Positions 21,644 through 29,678 of a DNA stretch of 64,000 nucleotides are shown here, in pieces. The DNA is from Coleofasciculus chthonoplastes F2-STO-03 (GTDB taxonomy: Bacteria; Cyanobacteriota; Cyanobacteriia; Cyanobacteriales; Coleofasciculaceae): positions 62,656-126,655 of the forward strand of contig JAVJWO010000216.1 in the NCBI GenBank assembly GCA_040222015.1. Reading direction: 5' to 3'. Within the stretch, counting starts at the first letter, position 1. Each line of letters opens with the position of its first letter. The translations under genes and the position numbers were made by a program. The notes beneath the pieces are model-generated. The model saw only the letters and a list, made by a program, of their open reading frames with translations. It was not told the DNA's origin and did not search any database.

Positions 21644-22945
21644 TTGATGAGTGTGATTCCATCAAAACCGCGCTATTGGCTGAAAAATGCTCGTGTGCCA
21701 CTCTCAATGTTACAGGTTGAGGATAAATCGATTTGGGAGAATCGCACCTCTGAGGGGTTGTGTTTAGTGGATATTCAGGTGGCTGCGGGAAAAGTGGCGC
21801 AAATTGTGCGGGCGAATTCTCAGCCGATCGCAGATATGGTGGTGGATGTGCAGGGGGGACAGGTTTGGGCTGGGTTTGTGGATATGCATACTCATCTGGA
21901 TAAGGGGCATATTTGGGAACGCACGCCGAATCTGGATGGAACGTTTGATAGTGCGTTGGCGAGGGTGCAACAGGATAGTTTGCAGTATTGGCAAGCGGAG
22001 GATGTGTATCGCCGCATGGGGTTTGGGTTGAGGTGTAGTTATGCCCATGGTACTCAGGCGATTCGCACTCATATTGATGCGTTTGGGGAACAGGCGAGGA
22101 TTAGTTTTGGCGTGTTTCAGCAGTTACAGCAGGAGTGGGCGAATCGATTGGTGTTGCAGGCGGTGGCTTTGGTGTCGCTGGATTATTATTTGACGCCGGA
22201 AGGGGTAAAGTTGGCGGATTTGGTGGCGGAGGTGGGGGGAGTTTTAGGGGGGGTGGCGTATATGAATCCGGAGTTGGAGGCGCAGTTGAATCAAGTGTTT
22301 CGGCTGGCGCAGGAACGGGATTTGGCGCTGGATTTTCATGTGGATGAGACGGATGATCCGGAGTCGATGTGTTTGAGGAAGGTGGCGGAAGCGGCGCTAC
22401 GGTGTGGGTTTGGGCGACAAATTGTTTGTGGACATTGTTGTAGTTTGGCGGTGCAGTCGCCGGAGGTGGTGGCGGAGACGTTGGCGCTGGTGAAGGAGGC
22501 GGGAATTGGGGTGGTGAGTTTACCGTTATCGAATTTGTATTTACAGGATCGGAAGTCGGGGAGAACACCGCGTTGGCGTGGGGTGACGCTGATTCAGGAG
22601 TTACAGGAGTATGGGATTGAGGTGACGTTGGCGAGTGATAATTGTCGTGATCCGTTTTTTGGGTTTGGGGATCATGATGTGTTGGAGGTGTTTAATCAAG
22701 GGGTGAGAGTTGCCCATTTGGATGGGTTGTATGGGGAGTCTCCGGCGATGGTGACGAAAACGGCGGCGGATTTGATGGGGTTGACGGATGTGGGGCGAAT
22801 TAGTGTGGAGTTGGCGGCGAATTTGGTTTGGTTTAAGGGACGCAGTTACAGTGAATTGTTATCACGTCCTCAGTGCGATCGCGTGGTGATTCGCGACGGA
22901 ATAGCGATTGATACGACGTTACCGGATTACCGGGAATTGGATTAG
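21644..22945 (+). CDS. codA: Cytosine deaminase
   Basis: DMHTHLDK, RTHID, DFHVDE, GHCCSL, ASDNCRDPF. Confidence 0.9.
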   Translation: MMSVIPSKPRYWLKNARVPLSMLQVEDKSIWENRTSEGLCLVDIQVAAGKVAQIVRANSQPIADMVVDVQGGQVWAGFVDMHTHLDKGHIWERTPNLDGTFDSALARVQQDSLQYWQAEDVYRRMGFGLRCSYAHGTQAIRTHIDAFGEQARISFGVFQQLQQEWANRLVLQAVALVSLDYYLTPEGVKLADLVAEVGGVLGGVAYMNPELEAQLNQVFRLAQERDLALDFHVDETDDPESMCLRKVAEAALRCGFGRQIVCGHCCSLAVQSPEVVAETLALVKEAGIGVVSLPLSNLYLQDRKSGRTPRWRGVTLIQELQEYGIEVTLASDNCRDPFFGFGDHDVLEVFNQGVRVAHLDGLYGESPAMVTKTAADLMGLTDVGRISVELAANLVWFKGRSYSELLSRPQCDRVVIRDGIAIDTTLPDYRELD

Positions 22946-22987
22946 TCATTCGTCATTCGTCATTCGTCATTTGTTATTCGTCATTTG

Positions 22988-23182
22988 TCAATAAAGTAAA
23001 CAAGCTTGTACATCTTCCGGTTCTAGCCAGGGATAACCAACTAGCAATGTCTCGACTGTATCACCTGCTGCCAGCATTCCTAGAACGTGTTCAACGGCTA
23101 AACGGCGTCCTCGAATAATTGGCTTTCCACTAAAAATTTTTGGATTGACTGTAATTCTTGCTAAAATTTTTTTCTCGTCCAT
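22988..23182 (-). CDS. DUF433 antitoxin-like protein, possibly C-terminally truncated, no partner toxin
   Basis: RITVNPKIFSGKPIIRGRRLAVEHVL..YPWL.PEDV.ACL; stops at the edge of a heptamer repeat array. Confidence 0.8.
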   Translation of the reverse strand: MDEKKILARITVNPKIFSGKPIIRGRRLAVEHVLGMLAAGDTVETLLVGYPWLEPEDVQACLLY

Positions 23183-23269
23183 AATCAACCGTCCTAATCC
23201 TCTAAAAAAATAAGTAAAATACCTTTGTCATTGTAGAACAAAACCAAAGTGTCGTTTTCCGCTTGGTGA

Positions 23270-24124
23270 TTATCTTAGCATTCCCCCTTGGGATATCCGT
23301 CGCACCATCCCCATTCCCATTGTGGTTTTCCGCCCGACGCCAGAATAGAGGGTAAAATCGGCTAAAGCGTTAATTTGCTGAATCGCCTCTGCTTCAGGTT
23401 TTCCCATAATCCGAAAATTGAGTGCGCCAACACAGCCAATAAATTTACTGCGAGAATCGGCAACTAATTCGGTGTGAATCTCAAAGAAACTGGGGAAAAC
23501 ATGATCGACTAATGTTTTCGAGAATTCTATGCCACTGTATTGATTCCAGCGCTTAATTAAACTGTTAAAGACTAATTCCCTTGTGGGTAAGGCACAATCA
23601 TATTTACTCTGACGAAATGCGGTGGGGGTAGAGAAGGCGAAATTCAGAGTGCGATCGCGCGTCGAGGCTTGGTCGTATAATTGTTGATAACTGAGAGCAT
23701 TTGCCCAACATCCAGGCATCCCTTTTTGGGGTGTTCCTAGAATACTGGTAATCTGCAAGTTAGCTGGACCTAAATGCCAGGGTTGTTCCGGATTCAGGTT
23801 TAGCCACAGGTGGGTTAATTGACTGAATAAGGTATCATCAAGTAGGGAAATTCGCCACCAACAGGGAGTTCCTTGGGGAATTGGTTTATGGTGTTGCCAG
23901 TGGAGGTTTGCTGATGCTGAATCACTACGATGCTGAATTTGTAGGGGACTCAGGGTAAAGGCTTTATCGGATTTGGCTTCGTGGAGATAATCGCCTAGGT
24001 TTCTATCGACAGAACTTACCAGGTTGAGAAATAGGGCGTGTAAGTGGCGTCCACTGAGAAACTGTGGTGGAATTGGCGATTGGGGAAGTAGGTTGAGAAT
24101 TAGACTATGGGGCATAGTTTGCAT
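23270..24124 (-). CDS. cas6: CRISPR-associated endoribonuclease Cas6 (type I-D-like)
   Basis: MPHSLILNL N-terminus (ATG 24115; alternative ATG 24124), GRHLHALF, TPTAFRQ, G-rich loop YSGVGRKTTMGMG. Confidence 0.95.
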   Translation of the reverse strand: MQTMPHSLILNLLPQSPIPPQFLSGRHLHALFLNLVSSVDRNLGDYLHEAKSDKAFTLSPLQIQHRSDSASANLHWQHHKPIPQGTPCWWRISLLDDTLFSQLTHLWLNLNPEQPWHLGPANLQITSILGTPQKGMPGCWANALSYQQLYDQASTRDRTLNFAFSTPTAFRQSKYDCALPTRELVFNSLIKRWNQYSGIEFSKTLVDHVFPSFFEIHTELVADSRSKFIGCVGALNFRIMGKPEAEAIQQINALADFTLYSGVGRKTTMGMGMVRRISQGGMLR

Positions 24125-24961
24125 CCCTGATAGGGATTATAGAGGATTTCGACTATATTCCTGCACTCCATTCTTATAAACAGGAGTGGTTTCAATCCCT
24201 GATAGGGATTATAGAGGATTTTGACGTTCAATGGCTTCCTAGTTCCCCGGAATCTATGAAGATTCCGTTTCAATCCCTGATAGGGATTATAGAGGATTTT
24301 GACCAAGAATCATGATCTAGATCCAGCTGGATAATTTGTTTCAATCCCTAGTAGGGATTATAGAGGATTTTGACGCGGATTCCTACGTTCCCTGAATGGA
24401 AGGACAATGTACTGTTTCAATCCCTAGTAGGGATTATAGAGGATTTTGACCGTAATTAGTGCTGTCGGTATTCACTCCGGAGAAAGTTTCAATCCCTAGT
24501 AGGGATTATAGAGGATTTTGACCTTATTATTGATTCCCCCAAGTGTACTATTGAAATGCCGTTTCAATCCCTAGTAGGGATTATAGAGGATTTTGACTGG
24601 GGGTGTCCTCCCCTACTATTTCCAGGTGGCTGTTTCAATCCCTAGTAGGGATTATAGAGGATTTTGACCTGTGCGTTGATTCTCTTCTCAAGTTCAAGCC
24701 AGATGTTTCAATCCCTAGTAGGGATTATAGAGGATTTTGACGGTATATGCCTGGTTTCTAGGATTCGCCTGTGGAGTTTCAATCCCTAGTAGGGATTATA
24801 GAGGATTTTGACCTCGTTTGGTTAGGTTTTCGCTAAATCCTTTGAGTCGTTTCAATCCCTAGTAGGGATTATAGAGGATTTTGACCGGCTCCCCCGCTCT
24901 TGCCCCATACGGTATCTATCTTTAGTTTCAATCCCTAGTAGGGATTATAGAGGATTTTGAC
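24117..24961 (-). CRISPR. CRISPR array, 12 repeats of 37 bp and 11 spacers of 34-41 bp
   Basis: Repeat (minus strand) GTCAAAATCCTCTATAATCCCTACTAGGGATTGAAAC; + strand starts at 24117, 24189, 24267, 24338, 24414, 24486, 24561, 24632, 24705, 24776, 24849, 24925. Confidence 0.98.
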
Positions 24962-25210
24962 CGCCGACCTCTGAAACGCTTACTGTATTTGATTTTCAAG
25001 GTTCGATTGCGACAACCTCCTCTAACTATAGCATTTCAGCCCTCGGTTTTGACAACCCCCGCGAACAAAAAAGTCTCAAACCCTTTCTGAATCAGCTTTT
25101 CAGCCATTGCGACAACCTCCTCATTCGCGAAAAAGGCTGTATCCCTGACTCAATAAGGAATACAGCCTCAAATTTTGACTCCCCGAAAAAAACACCTACT
25201 GGTTGTCGCA
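24962..25210 (-). promoter_or_regulatory. CRISPR leader
   Basis: Non-coding stretch between cas2 remnant and the non-degenerate end of the array; repeated GCGACAACCTCC motif. Confidence 0.75.
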
Positions 25211-25468
25211 TCAGACAAAGAAAATCGAATTATCCCTTATGGGTTCGCCGCCGATGCGTTCAACCTTCCCTTGACAACAGCCACAGAGGAAATAGAAGCG
25301 AATGCTGTCCTGGTCTGGCTTAATCACCTTAGAAAGACGCGATCGCAATTTGGCATATTAGGTATCCGTCAAACTGCACTCAAACACACTATACTGCATC
25401 CACTGCCCATAAGACTTAAGAATACTGTGTATCTTCGTCCGACGCTTATCTTCGGGGACAGCATAAAT
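25211..25468 (-). pseudogene. cas2: cas2 pseudogene
   Basis: IYAVPEDKRRTKIHSILKSYGQWMQYSVFECSLTDT*YAKLRSRL...DSIRFYFLCGCCQGKVERIGG; in-frame TAA at 25358-25360, no start codon, YD changed to YA. Confidence 0.92.
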
Positions 25469-25685
25469 TTTTAAGTTTGTTCGTAGTGAGGACTTTAGTC
25501 CTCTTCGTTAGCGGCGCTAAAGCGCCGACTACAAGCAAGCTATCCACTTTGATAATAATTTGGTCAGATATTGCGGGCGAATTTACGATTTGACCTCTCC
25601 CCCAGCCCCTCTCCTGCAAGGAGAGGGGAGTCCGGTTCCCCCTTCCATTCAACAAAAGCGAAGCATCCTTTGACTTCCCTCCTTG

Positions 25686-26291: not shown

Positions 26292-27572
26292 TTATCCAGA
26301 ATCCTCCTTTTCCAGCAAAGCCAATAAATTCAATTCTTTATTCGCTACATACCTCACCGGATTCTTCTGCTTAATCACTTTCCCCTCTTGCACCGCTCGT
26401 TTTAACCAATCTTCCATCTGTCCTTTTCGTATATCCAACGATTCAGCCAGAGATTTCGCATCTTGAGGTTGCTCTAACTGGTTAAGTATAAAGGGTAAAA
26501 CCGCTTCATAGATATCTTTGGCGGGTAAATTAATGGAAATCGTTTTATCCCCACCTAAACCATCTCCGGCTGATAATTTTTCTGACTCGATTCTTCCCCC
26601 ATCAGCTTGGCTTTCTTCAACCTCAGCGATAGCAGCATCTAAAAGTGTACGCAACAGTTTATTCCAAGGGGCTTCAGGAAAAACAATCCCTCCCTTTTCC
26701 AGCAATTTCTGATTACCTTCAGGAACAGTTCCCTGCATTCGCACAAAAACGGGGACATCTTTTACCTTTCTCAACACCTCAGTCGCCCCCGCCCAGGTTC
26801 CACCTTTGCCAACAGCAGAACTAATCACTAACGCATAATCAGCTAACGCATAAATATACTTATTTCGCCCCATAGCATTACCCGTGCTGAAACTCGCGTC
26901 GGGGTCATACGCAGACACTAATGTTAGTCTACCTTCTTTAATTCCCGCACGATACTTACTCGCCACAGCCACTTTCGTCAAACTATCCGCAAGTACACCC
27001 ACAGCATTCCCGCCTGCTGCTAATATACCTAACATTGACGCTTGATCTACTCCACGCGCCCCACCAGAAATCACATTGATTCCTTGTTCAGCGCATGTCT
27101 GAACAACTCTTTCGGTATAATTAAGTCCGTCTTGATCAACATCACGAGAACCAACGATAGCCAACCCACCTTGAGCAAGCAATTCTCTATTACCAATTCC
27201 ATAGAGAATCGCGGGTGCATTATGTTTCAATCTCTGCTTCAAACATTGAGGATAGCCTGCGTCACCTCGCCCCACTATCCATAACCCCTGATTCGTCCAC
27301 TTTTCCACCGCCAAACTGAGCATTACACCGCGTTCAAGTAACGCGACTAACCGCTGAGAATCAAGCTTGTCAATGGTAATTTGAGATAAGCGATTTTTCA
27401 GGGTTTGATCAAGCAAATCCTCCGGAATCATGTCATTTTCTACCAACCAACTCGCTACCGTATTATACTCGCTCAGGGTTAAAGGTTTGGGTTCAGTTTG
27501 GCGATTTTGTCCAAAGCTGGCACACAATAATAAAATGGCTTGGGTATTGGGTGACAGCAGATGGTAATCCAT
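26292..27572 (-). CDS. DprA/Smf-family protein (RqlI-like)
   Basis: LAIVGSR, VISGGARGVD, AMGRNKYIYALA, GGTW; C-terminal HTH-like segment. Confidence 0.88.
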   Translation of the reverse strand: MDYHLLSPNTQAILLLCASFGQNRQTEPKPLTLSEYNTVASWLVENDMIPEDLLDQTLKNRLSQITIDKLDSQRLVALLERGVMLSLAVEKWTNQGLWIVGRGDAGYPQCLKQRLKHNAPAILYGIGNRELLAQGGLAIVGSRDVDQDGLNYTERVVQTCAEQGINVISGGARGVDQASMLGILAAGGNAVGVLADSLTKVAVASKYRAGIKEGRLTLVSAYDPDASFSTGNAMGRNKYIYALADYALVISSAVGKGGTWAGATEVLRKVKDVPVFVRMQGTVPEGNQKLLEKGGIVFPEAPWNKLLRTLLDAAIAEVEESQADGGRIESEKLSAGDGLGGDKTISINLPAKDIYEAVLPFILNQLEQPQDAKSLAESLDIRKGQMEDWLKRAVQEGKVIKQKNPVRYVANKELNLLALLEKEDSG

Positions 27573-27587
27573 AATCTTCTAATTTGC

Positions 27588-29678
27588 TTACGTTAACGAA
27601 TTAAGTGCCAATGCTAACGGAAAAACTGGACCACTTCCAGCCCGACGTAACAGTGCAGCAATAACAGTGAATGTCCAACGTGAATCTACCATATCATCAA
27701 TTAAGAATACTGCCCCCTTCATCCCTTGCCAAGGTTTCACGGCAAAGACACCATCGAGGTTATGGGCTTGTTGGTAACTATTTCCCATCTGTTTTTGTGG
27801 CTGAGTATGGCGAACTTTCTGCACAATTGGCTGAAAGGTTAATTGTAATTGATGGGCGAGTCGTTGGGCAAAATTTGGCACAAGTTGGGGATGATGTAAG
27901 GAAGGGACACAGGTTACCCAAGTTGGAAAAGGTTGGGGGTGCCAACGTTGAATCATCTCAAATGCACCCTGCACCAAGGCGTCGTCAAAATCATGATTAT
28001 GGTATTTCCCTTGTTTGACTAATTCGCCCCAACCCGCATCCCCCCAAAGTGATAATGCTCGTCCGGGTTCAGCGCGTAAATTGTCGCGAATTTTCCCAGA
28101 AAACCCATAACTAGGGAGTGCTTTAGATGCCCATTGTTTACGAAGTTCGATAATTTGGTCACTACGACGGAGATACTGAATTGCTTGATTAACTCGGTTT
28201 AGTGAATAGGTTTCGGGTAATAACGGTCTACCCAAGCATACCGCACATTTCCCGCAAGGTGTGGGCTGGGGATCATCTAATTCTCTGGCGAGAAATGTCA
28301 TCAAGCATTCTTGACTATTCATATAGTCAAACATACGAGTTTGTTCTTGGCGGCGAATTTGGGTTAACCGTTCAATTTTCTCCGTATCCGGTTGATAAAA
28401 TACGGGCGTCGCATACCATTTAGATCCTTGCTTGGTTATGGGTGCAGGAGACTCTAAGGATAACAGTTTCAATACCTTCTTGATTTGCCCATTAGAAAGA
28501 TTGAGATGCTGCTCAATTTGGGTAATTGATAATCCATCTTCGGCTTGTTCTAACGCATTTAAAACCTCCTGAACATGAGCCTCTGGTGGAAAGGCAGTTT
28601 GAATAAAATAATCCGTAATTTCCTGATCTTCTTCTCCACCGAGCAGAATTCCATAAGCTTGCTCTACCGCTCTCCCGGCTCGTCCGACTTGTTGGTAATA
28701 ATGAACCACAGAACCCGGACGCTGATAGTGGATGACAAATCCTAAATCCGGCTTATCAAACCCCATTCCTAAAGCAGTTGTCGCGACTAAAGCCTTAATT
28801 TCATTGTTAAGCAGTTGGTCTTCTAAGGTTAAACGCTGTTCATGAGTTAGCTTAGCATGGTAGGCTTGAGCATGAATCCCTTGCTGATTTAACCAATCGG
28901 CAACTCGTTCGGTATCTTTGGTAGTTAATGCGTAAATAATCCCACTTCCGGGTAAGTTGGGCAAGTGCTCAGCTAACCACGCCATACGTGCGGCGGAGCT
29001 CGGTAATTTAAGGGTTTGTAATTGTAAGCTTTTTCGGGTTAGAGTACCTCTGGATACCAGTAAATTTGCACCTAGTTGCGTAATAATATCGTTAACCACG
29101 CGGTTATTTGCCGTGGCGGTTGTGGCGAGGGCGGGAATGGTTTGAGGAAGCGCTTGTAAAACCCGGACAATGCGCCGATAGTCTGGGCGAAAATCATGTC
29201 CCCAATCAGAGATACAATGGGCTTCATCGACAACAAATAAGCCAATTCGTTGGGAGATGGGTAACAGAATGGTTTGGCGAAAGTCTTCATTGGCGAGTCG
29301 TTCGGGGGAAATCAGGAGAATATCAATGATTCCCGCTTGTAATTGAGCGTTAATCTGTTCCCACTCTTCGGGATTACTGGAGTTAATCGTGGCGGCGTTA
29401 ATATTAATCCGTTTAGCAGCGACAATTTGATTTCGCATTAACGCCAGGAGGGGTGAAATCAGCAGAGTGGAACCCCCATGATTATCACGCAGCAAACGAG
29501 TAGCGAGAAAGTAGACAATGCTTTTCCCCCAGCCTGTGCGTTGTACAACTAGAAGCCGCGATCGCTCTAAAATTATGCTAGCGATGGCTTCCCATTGTCC
29601 ATCCCGAAATTGAGCGGTTGGGTTGTTGAGGGCTTGGCGCAGCAGCGATAGTGCTTGGGCTTTCAGTTGGGTTGTCAT
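27588..29678 (-). CDS. RecQ-like helicase with C-terminal phosphoribosyltransferase domain (RqlH-like)
   Basis: RTGWGKS, DEAHCISDWGHDFRPDY, QQVGRAGR, CGKCAVC, C-terminal FLIDDMVDSRWT. Confidence 0.9.
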   Translation of the reverse strand: MTTQLKAQALSLLRQALNNPTAQFRDGQWEAIASIILERSRLLVVQRTGWGKSIVYFLATRLLRDNHGGSTLLISPLLALMRNQIVAAKRININAATINSSNPEEWEQINAQLQAGIIDILLISPERLANEDFRQTILLPISQRIGLFVVDEAHCISDWGHDFRPDYRRIVRVLQALPQTIPALATTATANNRVVNDIITQLGANLLVSRGTLTRKSLQLQTLKLPSSAARMAWLAEHLPNLPGSGIIYALTTKDTERVADWLNQQGIHAQAYHAKLTHEQRLTLEDQLLNNEIKALVATTALGMGFDKPDLGFVIHYQRPGSVVHYYQQVGRAGRAVEQAYGILLGGEEDQEITDYFIQTAFPPEAHVQEVLNALEQAEDGLSITQIEQHLNLSNGQIKKVLKLLSLESPAPITKQGSKWYATPVFYQPDTEKIERLTQIRRQEQTRMFDYMNSQECLMTFLARELDDPQPTPCGKCAVCLGRPLLPETYSLNRVNQAIQYLRRSDQIIELRKQWASKALPSYGFSGKIRDNLRAEPGRALSLWGDAGWGELVKQGKYHNHDFDDALVQGAFEMIQRWHPQPFPTWVTCVPSLHHPQLVPNFAQRLAHQLQLTFQPIVQKVRHTQPQKQMGNSYQQAHNLDGVFAVKPWQGMKGAVFLIDDMVDSRWTFTVIAALLRRAGSGPVFPLALALNSLT

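Follow-up and report, generated by a model that had tools for sequence, protein, structure and literature searches.

Does an RNA-processing enzyme act on its own message when its reading frame begins one base past its own substrate? This question is raised by a cas6 gene and a CRISPR array in a 64,000-nucleotide (nt) stretch of DNA from the cyanobacterium Coleofasciculus chthonoplastes F2-STO-03 (contig JAVJWO010000216.1, positions 62,656 to 126,655), here called the window. How the amount of a CRISPR RNA (crRNA)-processing enzyme is matched to the amount of its precursor has been little studied, and this locus is a natural, clade-wide case in which a Cas6 reading frame starts one base past a Cas6 substrate, so that an RNA enzyme is wired to its own message. 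We consider it probable that the locus is a variant of the type I-D system in which cas6, shifted to the array's trailer end, forms the last cistron of the precursor crRNA (pre-crRNA) and follows a terminal repeat that Cas6 cuts. The anatomy is solid; its regulatory reading is tentative.

The cas6 frame begins one base past the last repeat

A repeat search found the array (24117-24961, minus strand), in which a 37-nt repeat (GTCAAAATCCTCTATAATCCCTACTAGGGATTGAAAC on the minus strand) occurs 12 times with 11 intervening spacers and a start-to-start spacing of 71-78 nt. It has the regular direct repeats, unique spacers, leader, and repeat hairpin of a CRISPR array. We read it on the minus strand because its repeats end in the cyanobacterial tag ATTGAAAC, because an aligned leader of ~250 nt (24962-25213, minus strand) is common to four other arrays of the genome (conserved with C47a, C47b, and C77 and partly with C108), and because a cas2 remnant lies upstream on that strand. 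On this strand the leader comes first, then the array, then cas6.

The terminal, leader-distal repeat (24153 to 24117, minus strand; GTCGAAATCCTCTATAATCCCTATCAGGGATGCAAAC) has 3 mismatches to the consensus and is predicted to fold into a hairpin at 24123-24137. It is followed by a single T at 24116 and then by ATG CCC CAT from 24115 on the same strand, a gap of 1 nt, just as an earlier note made from the sequence of this DNA had described. The last octamer of this repeat (24124 to 24117) reads ATGCAAAC where ATTGAAAC is usual, which gives rise to an in-frame ATG at 24124-24122 (minus strand), again in agreement with that note. This upstream ATG would add the residues MQT; the variant is found in this genome only, with a different one in the congener G019.

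The repeats are not uniform along the array. In a comparison of 24267-24961 with 24117-24239, nine leader-proximal repeats carry the loop variant ACT, and the three oldest repeats (24267, 24189, and 24117) carry ATC, like the C47a and C77 arrays. The terminal repeat, alone among the window repeats, starts with GTCG, as do the C47a and C77 arrays. These differences between old and young repeats indicate that the repeat sequence changed within the window array during its growth.

The junction recurs within Coleofasciculus and in metagenome contigs

To ask whether this arrangement is peculiar to one assembly, we searched 52 genomes of the family for cas6 orthologs (E ≤ 1e-30), which were found in 34. 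We compared 30 cas6 loci, one of which runs off its contig, leaving 29 with readable upstream sequence. The repeat-T-ATG junction is present at 7 of these 29 loci, all in the window's genus, where 7 of the 8 cas6-bearing genomes have it. The terminal repeat is full in six genomes, this one and five others; in the remaining one, G018, only the 3' 24 nt of the repeat are kept, preceded by unrelated DNA, and these retain TATAAT, the hairpin, and the tag. No repeat lies upstream of cas6 in the 22 loci outside this clade (21 of other genera plus the congener G017), where cas6 comes after csc1 or another gene.

We also scanned 185,579 species, one genome each, for the 3' end of the repeat within 12 nt of ATGCCNYAYAG. 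This pattern needed the 3' end of this particular repeat and an MP[HY]S start; fusions of other repeats or Cas6 families fall outside it. Three of the 16 matches were real, all of them in Coleofasciculus, and the other 13 were discarded as chance hits in spacers or unrelated DNA. A looser pattern that allowed any 8-nt tag returned 8 contigs from a metagenome collection, every one (8/8) reading ...CAGGGATTGAAAC-T-ATGCCCCATAG. A repeat directly before cas6, which the earlier note had suggested seeking in other genomes, is thus found at 7/29 loci and on 8/8 metagenome contigs, and the single T is identical in 15/15 junctions. Eleven distinct terminal spacers occur across the 14 junctions whose repeat is full, indicating that the arrays turn over completely while the junction stays. 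Judging from these comparisons, the adjacency of array and cas6 is more than chance.

As the tag at the junction, 12 of the 15 junctions have ATTGAAAC, one has ATTCAAAC, and two create an ATG, those of this genome and of G019, whose tag is ATGGAAAC and whose ATG is also in frame. The tree relating this genome, G019, and G020, the three that bear a variant tag, has bootstrap values of 47-48, and the three possible pairings have 3, 4, and 1 shared derived sites. We make no claim for a convergent, independent origin of the ATG, given this tree and the conflict among shared sites. In G019 (L047), the tag is ATTGGAAC rather than ATTGAAAC in 20/28 repeats; congeners therefore differ in the crRNA tag as such.

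cas6 encodes a conserved Cas6 that most likely starts at 24115

The longest open reading frame (ORF) for cas6 has 284 codons (23270-24124, minus strand). Its product matches CRISPR_Cas6_N (PF19308; E 9.7e-76; 253.4 bits against a cutoff of 23.9), CRISPR_Cas6 (PF10040; E 1.1e-20; 74.6 bits against a cutoff of 25), and TIGR01877 (78.8 bits against a cutoff of 58.65), and it aligns end to end with the Thermus Cas6B structure 4c98 (E 2.4e-15, residues 1-271). A glycine-rich loop near the C terminus, GVGRKTTMGMG, pairs with GVGAKTPYGMG of the Thermus protein.

The earlier note had singled out the ATG at 24124, at which a processed transcript would start. The homology points to another start: residue 4 of the long ORF pairs with position 1 of the Cas6_N profile, and MPQAV, the N terminus of Thermus Cas6B, pairs with MPHSL from residue 1. 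The true start is therefore most likely the ATG at 24115, giving a type I-D-type Cas6 of 281 amino acids (aa) plus stop (23270-24115, minus strand). Starts read ATGCC in all 29 orthologs with readable starts.

Synonymous divergence (dS) in cas6 reaches up to 0.30 among the seven junction-bearing genomes, and the ratio of nonsynonymous to synonymous substitution rates (dN/dS) is 0.06-0.14 in all pairs with dS > 0.1. On this evidence cas6 is under purifying selection and hence functional. Higher values, 0.23 and 0.34, were obtained between this genome and its two nearest relatives, from small counts. The C-terminal tail of Cas6 also deviates in this genome (RRISQGGMLR versus RRMKS).

cas6 was relocated from within the type I-D operon

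To trace how cas6 came to lie behind the array, we matched the I-D proteins of this genome against longer flanking stretches from six congeners. Only G017 has the canonical order, cas3'-cas10d-csc2-csc1-cas6-cas4-cas1-cas2-array; cas6 lies behind the array in 7 genomes, and the window's genome has no cas6 between csc1 and cas4. G022 has the same operon with only cas6 codons 1-39 after csc1, preceded by upstream sequence as in G017, and a full cas6 behind the array. In G019 the csc1-cas4 interval is 77 nt and cas6 again follows the array, and in G020 and G016 a 3' remnant of cas4 lies behind the relocated cas6. In relatives, the array-cas6 pair ends a complete I-D operon. Since G017 keeps the canonical order and G022 keeps a 39-codon stump at that very site, cas6 was relocated. 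The loci record this stepwise relocation of a cas gene as an intact ancestor, a stump, and a clean loss.

In the simplest history, the locus or its 3' part would have been duplicated, so that an array repeat came to be followed immediately by a second cas6(-cas4...) copy, and the cas6 copy at the canonical site would then have been lost. The breakpoint falls exactly at the repeat/spacer boundary, 1 nt ahead of the ATG. A self-derived spacer over the cas6 start, serving as 35-bp homology for unequal crossing-over, would explain this exact boundary. The protospacer-adjacent motif of type I-D systems is GTN, and the ttt/ttc before the canonical cas6 start do not fit it; that origin is for us no more than a conjecture.

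The DNA in place of cas6 at the canonical site is common to this genome and G022 (L012 12956-13269 and L048 8094-8364). It includes the motifs GGGGCGGGTTTAGGGACT and AAAACCCGCCCTC and is possibly a small mobile insert.

This genome carries two complementary wrecks of one duplicated unit

Unlike its relatives, this genome has its effector genes on a contig other than that of the array-cas6 pair. Contig C47 carries cas3'-cas10d-csc2-csc1-cas4-cas1-cas2-leader-array (20 repeats), with cas3', cas10d, csc2, csc1, cas4, cas1d, and cas2 all above NCBIfam cutoffs. The I-D signatures TIGR03174, TIGR03157, TIGR03159, TIGR03158, and TIGR04093 (for cas10d/csc3, csc2, csc1, cas3', and cas1d) are above cutoff on C47, and none is in the window. 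No cas6 is present in the 315-nt csc1-cas4 gap of C47, and a 202-nt cas6 remnant (92% nucleotide identity, aa 152-232) lies ~650 nt behind the degenerate last repeat of the C47 array.

The window shows the reverse state. Upstream of the leader, on the minus strand, tblastn and alignment identified a cas2 remnant (25214-25465; aa 7-90, 96% identical to the C47 cas2, with no start codon), and tblastn identified a cas1 remnant matching the first 20 codons (60 nt) of the C47 cas1 ORF (25479-25538). With an operon and a cas6 remnant on C47, and cas1 and cas2 remnants and an intact cas6 in the window, the two loci are complementary wrecks of one duplicated unit. The window module is a duplicated 3' end of a full I-D locus that has since decayed to cas1 and cas2 remnants, a leader, an array, and an intact cas6.

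It follows from the lack of cas6 in the C47 operon that the window cas6 must act in trans, for the C47 effectors and for at least 3 further arrays. The earlier note had proposed a minimal array-plus-cas6 module that supplies crRNAs in trans. The action in trans fits the C47 operon; the minimal module does not stand, as the module is a decayed duplicate and the pair ends a full operon in relatives. Because the adaptation module upstream of the leader is dead, new spacers in the window array would need the C47 Cas1-Cas2.

Two further features of C47 were noted. A WYL/WCX-domain gene (L013 4770-5624, plus strand) is divergent from cas3' and is likely a transcriptional regulator of the system; upstream of cas3', a further array (C47b) has a leader of its own.

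The terminal repeat is a predicted Cas6 substrate on a proposed array-cas6 transcript

In Synechocystis, the type I-D enzyme Cas6-1 cuts its 37-nt repeat between G29 and A30, and cutting depends on formation of a stable hairpin in its sequence context, such that hairpin accuracy predicts cleavage (PMC5741207). Anabaena crRNAs carry 8-nt tags at their start in vivo, and the type I-D Cas6 Alr1566 acts on remote arrays (bioRxiv 10.1101/2020.04.14.041012). We infer the same cut, tags, and remote action for the window system.

Hairpin accuracy was calculated with the measure of PMC5741207 (base-pair probabilities, span of 80, no lonely pairs). In context, the predicted accuracy is 0.81 for the terminal repeat, 0.63-0.97 for the 11 internal repeats, and 0.89-0.96 for the terminal repeats of six relatives. 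As the terminal repeat falls within the internal range, the cas6 coding sequence leaves the substrate undisturbed. The repeat also retains its hairpin and the G29/A30 site (24125/24124, minus strand). From the score of 0.81 and the analogy with Cas6-1, the window Cas6 is predicted to cleave its cognate repeat 8 nt from the 3' end. We rejected a small hairpin across the start codon (ACUAUG-CCC-CAUAGU) as the basis for any reading, since at -3.6 kcal/mol its predicted fold is too weak.

There is no space between array and cas6 for a terminator or a two-hexamer promoter, and a scan of the region for both stayed at chance level: 5 promoter-like sites were found against 5.4 expected, and 3 terminator-like sites against 3.2 expected, all on the plus strand, overlapping at 24599-24613 in the array and antisense to it. 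We therefore infer that cas6 is the last cistron of the pre-crRNA. A conserved promoter candidate in the leader, predicted by eye from the alignment, consists of TTGTCA (25055 to 25050), a 19-nt spacer, and an extended -10 element, TGCTATAGT (25033 to 25025); the length of the spacer is why the two-hexamer scan missed it.

On this reading, the leader promoter would drive cas6 as the last cistron of the pre-crRNA, and Cas6 would cut the terminal repeat at G29/A30 like every other repeat. The freed cas6 mRNA would have a 9-nt 5' untranslated region (UTR) made up of the 8-nt crRNA tag plus U. The cut RNA would begin AUGCAAACUAUG here, i.e., 5'-AUGCAAACU-AUG, and AUUGAAACUAUG in most relatives, i.e., 5'-AUUGAAACU-AUG. 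Cas6 synthesis would be tied to array transcription, and in this genome the decayed duplicate would supply Cas6 in trans to the cas6-less I-D operon on C47. Of the interpretation in the earlier note, the anatomy, the substrate-like repeat, and the action in trans are thus supported, and the feedback loop that it envisaged is a possibility.

What would such a cut do? If array and cas6 are indeed co-transcribed, two outcomes seem to us about equally plausible, neither reaching an even chance: that cutting lowers translation or stability and so produces negative feedback, and that cutting has no effect. That it activates translation seems to us improbable, and we think damping or no effect more likely than activation. 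Damping could stem from the short structured leader, the 5'-OH end, the lack of a Shine-Dalgarno (SD) sequence, or a tag that Csc1/Csc2 might bind.

A more specific proposal, which we regard as speculative and on balance unlikely, is that the terminal repeat, a candidate cis site ahead of the reading frame, is a natural Cas6 homeostat. When Cas6 is scarce, uncut pre-crRNA-cas6 transcripts would be translated. When Cas6 is plentiful, it would cut at G29/A30 and turn its own mRNA into a 5'-OH, SD-less RNA that starts with a crRNA tag and is poorly translated. Alternatively, the cut mRNA might be captured by Csc1/Csc2 and trimmed as a pseudo-crRNA with the cas6 start region as its "spacer." Processing capacity would thus be matched to the repeat supply of five arrays, and where the tag is mutated, in this genome, G019, and G020, the change would represent tuning of the loop.

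Several observations weigh against co-transcription with cleavage. The mutations just mentioned affect positions 3-4 of the terminal-repeat tag. That the junction persists says little about selection on it: recombination from repeat to repeat is unable to remove a terminal repeat, and the genomes have diverged little (dS ≤ 0.30). A second Cas6 on contig C108 (374 aa, 30% identical), beside the type III genes cas10/cmr2 and csx3, means that the window cas6 may not be the sole processing enzyme. Metatranscriptome data lend no transcript support. Eight runs each contained 0.10-0.14 of the sampled words, and in the four examined, all contigs came from relatives (most pieces <99% alike) and cannot show 5' ends. 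A 110-nt contig (24035-24144; X1, X2, and X6) reaches 29 nt into the terminal repeat, below our 31-letter bridging rule, and could be library DNA; a 921-nt contig belongs to a relative with canonical upstream sequence. Finally, a perfect TATAAT in every repeat makes a transcription start inside the terminal repeat possible, and promoters in repeats or spacers do occur (PMC8616872).

Alternative explanations of the junction

Of the alternatives, the one that survives best, though we hold it to be less likely than cleavage of a co-transcript, is that the junction is a neutral scar. Duplication and deletion would have put cas6 behind the array, where it is read through, and perhaps cut, without regulatory consequence, and it would persist because it is hard to lose. 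The history is messy, with a cas6 stump, remnants of cas4, cas2, and cas1, and filler DNA; the genomes are close; and cas6 lacks an SD sequence in every arrangement, so no special initiation signal was lost. A scar does not by itself account for a breakpoint set exactly at the repeat/spacer boundary, 1 nt from the ATG, or for the deletion or insertion in G018, which stopped before the hairpin and tag. Moreover, all seven genomes with the junction have since lost the canonical copy; expression from the new position is therefore enough.

Less likely still is a promoter within the repeat. The TATAAT at 24141 to 24136 (minus strand), perfect and 20 nt upstream of the ATG, might serve as a -10 box, and the cas6 mRNA would then start at about repeat positions 23-26, in the hairpin loop or 3' arm. 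Such a transcript would lack the 5' arm of the hairpin, so Cas6 would not cut it and cas6 expression would be independent of the leader. G018 is suggestive here: it is without the 5' 13 nt of the repeat and still reads cTTATAAT, the box having been regenerated by the new flank. G018 also keeps the hairpin and tag, however, and is thus compatible with both models. No -35 element is recognizable (CAGGAA by eye), and the two-hexamer scan did not call the site. The box is present in every repeat and also in G017, the congener with canonical gene order; it therefore predates the fusion and is no adaptation to it.

We find it very doubtful that the junction is a device for leaderless translation, the explanation put forward in the earlier note. 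According to this explanation, the Cas6 cut removes the SD sequence and leaves an mRNA that starts at the AUG at 24124, so that processing switches on, or is the designed route to, cas6 translation. A G29/A30 cut would indeed leave 5'-AUG CAA ACU AUG CCC in this genome, in frame, and the tag of G019 would do likewise; tag positions 3-4 changed at least 3 times, or recombined, within a subclade with dS < 0.1. Yet an ATG is created at only 2/15 junctions, too few for a transcript starting at AUG to be a conserved design, 12 keep the usual tag, and with all three tag variants in a single subclade of low bootstrap support, an independent origin of the ATG cannot be claimed. The AGGGA that the note took for the SD sequence is, as it said, the 3' arm of the repeat hairpin. 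An SD core between -20 and -4 occurs in 0/29 orthologs, however, so that AGGGA is unlikely to be a functional SD and Cas6 has nothing to remove. The N terminus MPHSL is moreover conserved as far as Thermus Cas6B. Cas6 products carry 5'-OH ends, whereas a 2012 paper by Giliberti reportedly found that a 5' phosphate is required for leaderless translation in Escherichia coli.

The chance that the junction is an assembly artifact, a collapsed repeat misjoined to cas6, is negligible: the genome is a draft of 219 contigs, but the junction recurs in seven separate assemblies and eight metagenome contigs with differing spacers beside it, so that neither misassembly nor a unique junction, both of which the earlier note had raised against its own proposal, holds.

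Comparison with known systems

The components of the system are ordinary type I-D parts. The canonical cyanobacterial I-D systems (CRISPR1/Cas6-1 of Synechocystis PCC 6803; Anabaena PCC 7120 with Alr1566) have the same genes (cas3', cas10d, csc2, csc1, cas4, cas1d, cas2, and cas6) and share the 37-nt repeat, whose hairpin is short and whose 8-nt 3' tag ends in GAAAC. In contrast to these systems, cas6 lies here behind the array, 1 nt past its last repeat and on a contig other than that of the effector genes. The novelty lies in where cas6 sits, in its being fused to the last repeat, in the persistence of this fusion throughout a clade, and in the way the system is split between two complementary loci in this genome. 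Neither a cas6 beginning where an array ends nor a Cas6 that acts on the initiation region of its own mRNA was described in anything that our full-text literature search returned, with subscription-only papers and supplements outside its range.

Hou et al. are said to have described, in 2019, orphan arrays and array fragmentation in filamentous cyanobacteria. Such orphan arrays, as presented in the preprint by Reimann et al. (2020), resemble the present case in that scattered arrays with the same repeat and leader, five here, are served by one Cas6. Unlike in those, one "orphan" array here carries a cas6 fused to its last repeat, and the main locus has lost its own. Complementary decay of two locus copies thus offers an explanation for the origin of "orphan" arrays and split systems in filamentous cyanobacteria.

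The arrangement is also a natural counterpart of synthetic devices. Csy4/Cas6f sites have reportedly been placed in 5' UTRs to insulate or control translation, by Qi et al. in 2012 and Borchardt et al. in 2015. As at the window junction, a Cas6-type hairpin lies directly upstream of an ORF in these devices and cleavage sets the 5' end of the mRNA. Unlike the devices, the present arrangement occurs in nature, has an enzyme that would cut the mRNA encoding it, and leaves no ribosome-binding site downstream of the cut.

Processing proteins that share a transcript with their guide substrate offer a further parallel. In Pectobacterium, Cas6f cuts co-transcripts of the cas operon and the CRISPR array, and Nety et al. 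reportedly described in 2023 that TnpB processes its own transcript, which carries omega RNA. In both of these, the guide lies 3' of the ORF, whereas here the guides lie 5' and the cut would hit the translation initiation region. The known self-control of CRISPR systems works on transcription, for example through DevTRS and tracr-L (PMC8616872).

Neighboring features

A gene for an antitoxin-like DUF433 protein (22988-23188, minus strand) follows cas6 at a distance of 81 nt and may share its transcript. A tandem run of ATTCGTC-like heptamers, with 3 overlapping 22-nt copies, occupies 22941-22990; similar runs occur on at least 7 other contigs, and G018 has them in the DNA that took the place of part of its terminal repeat. 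A possible defense-island pair lies just upstream of the CRISPR remnant (26292-29678, minus strand), where a gene for a DprA/SLOG-domain protein (426 aa) adjoins one for a RecQ-like DEAD-box helicase (696 aa).

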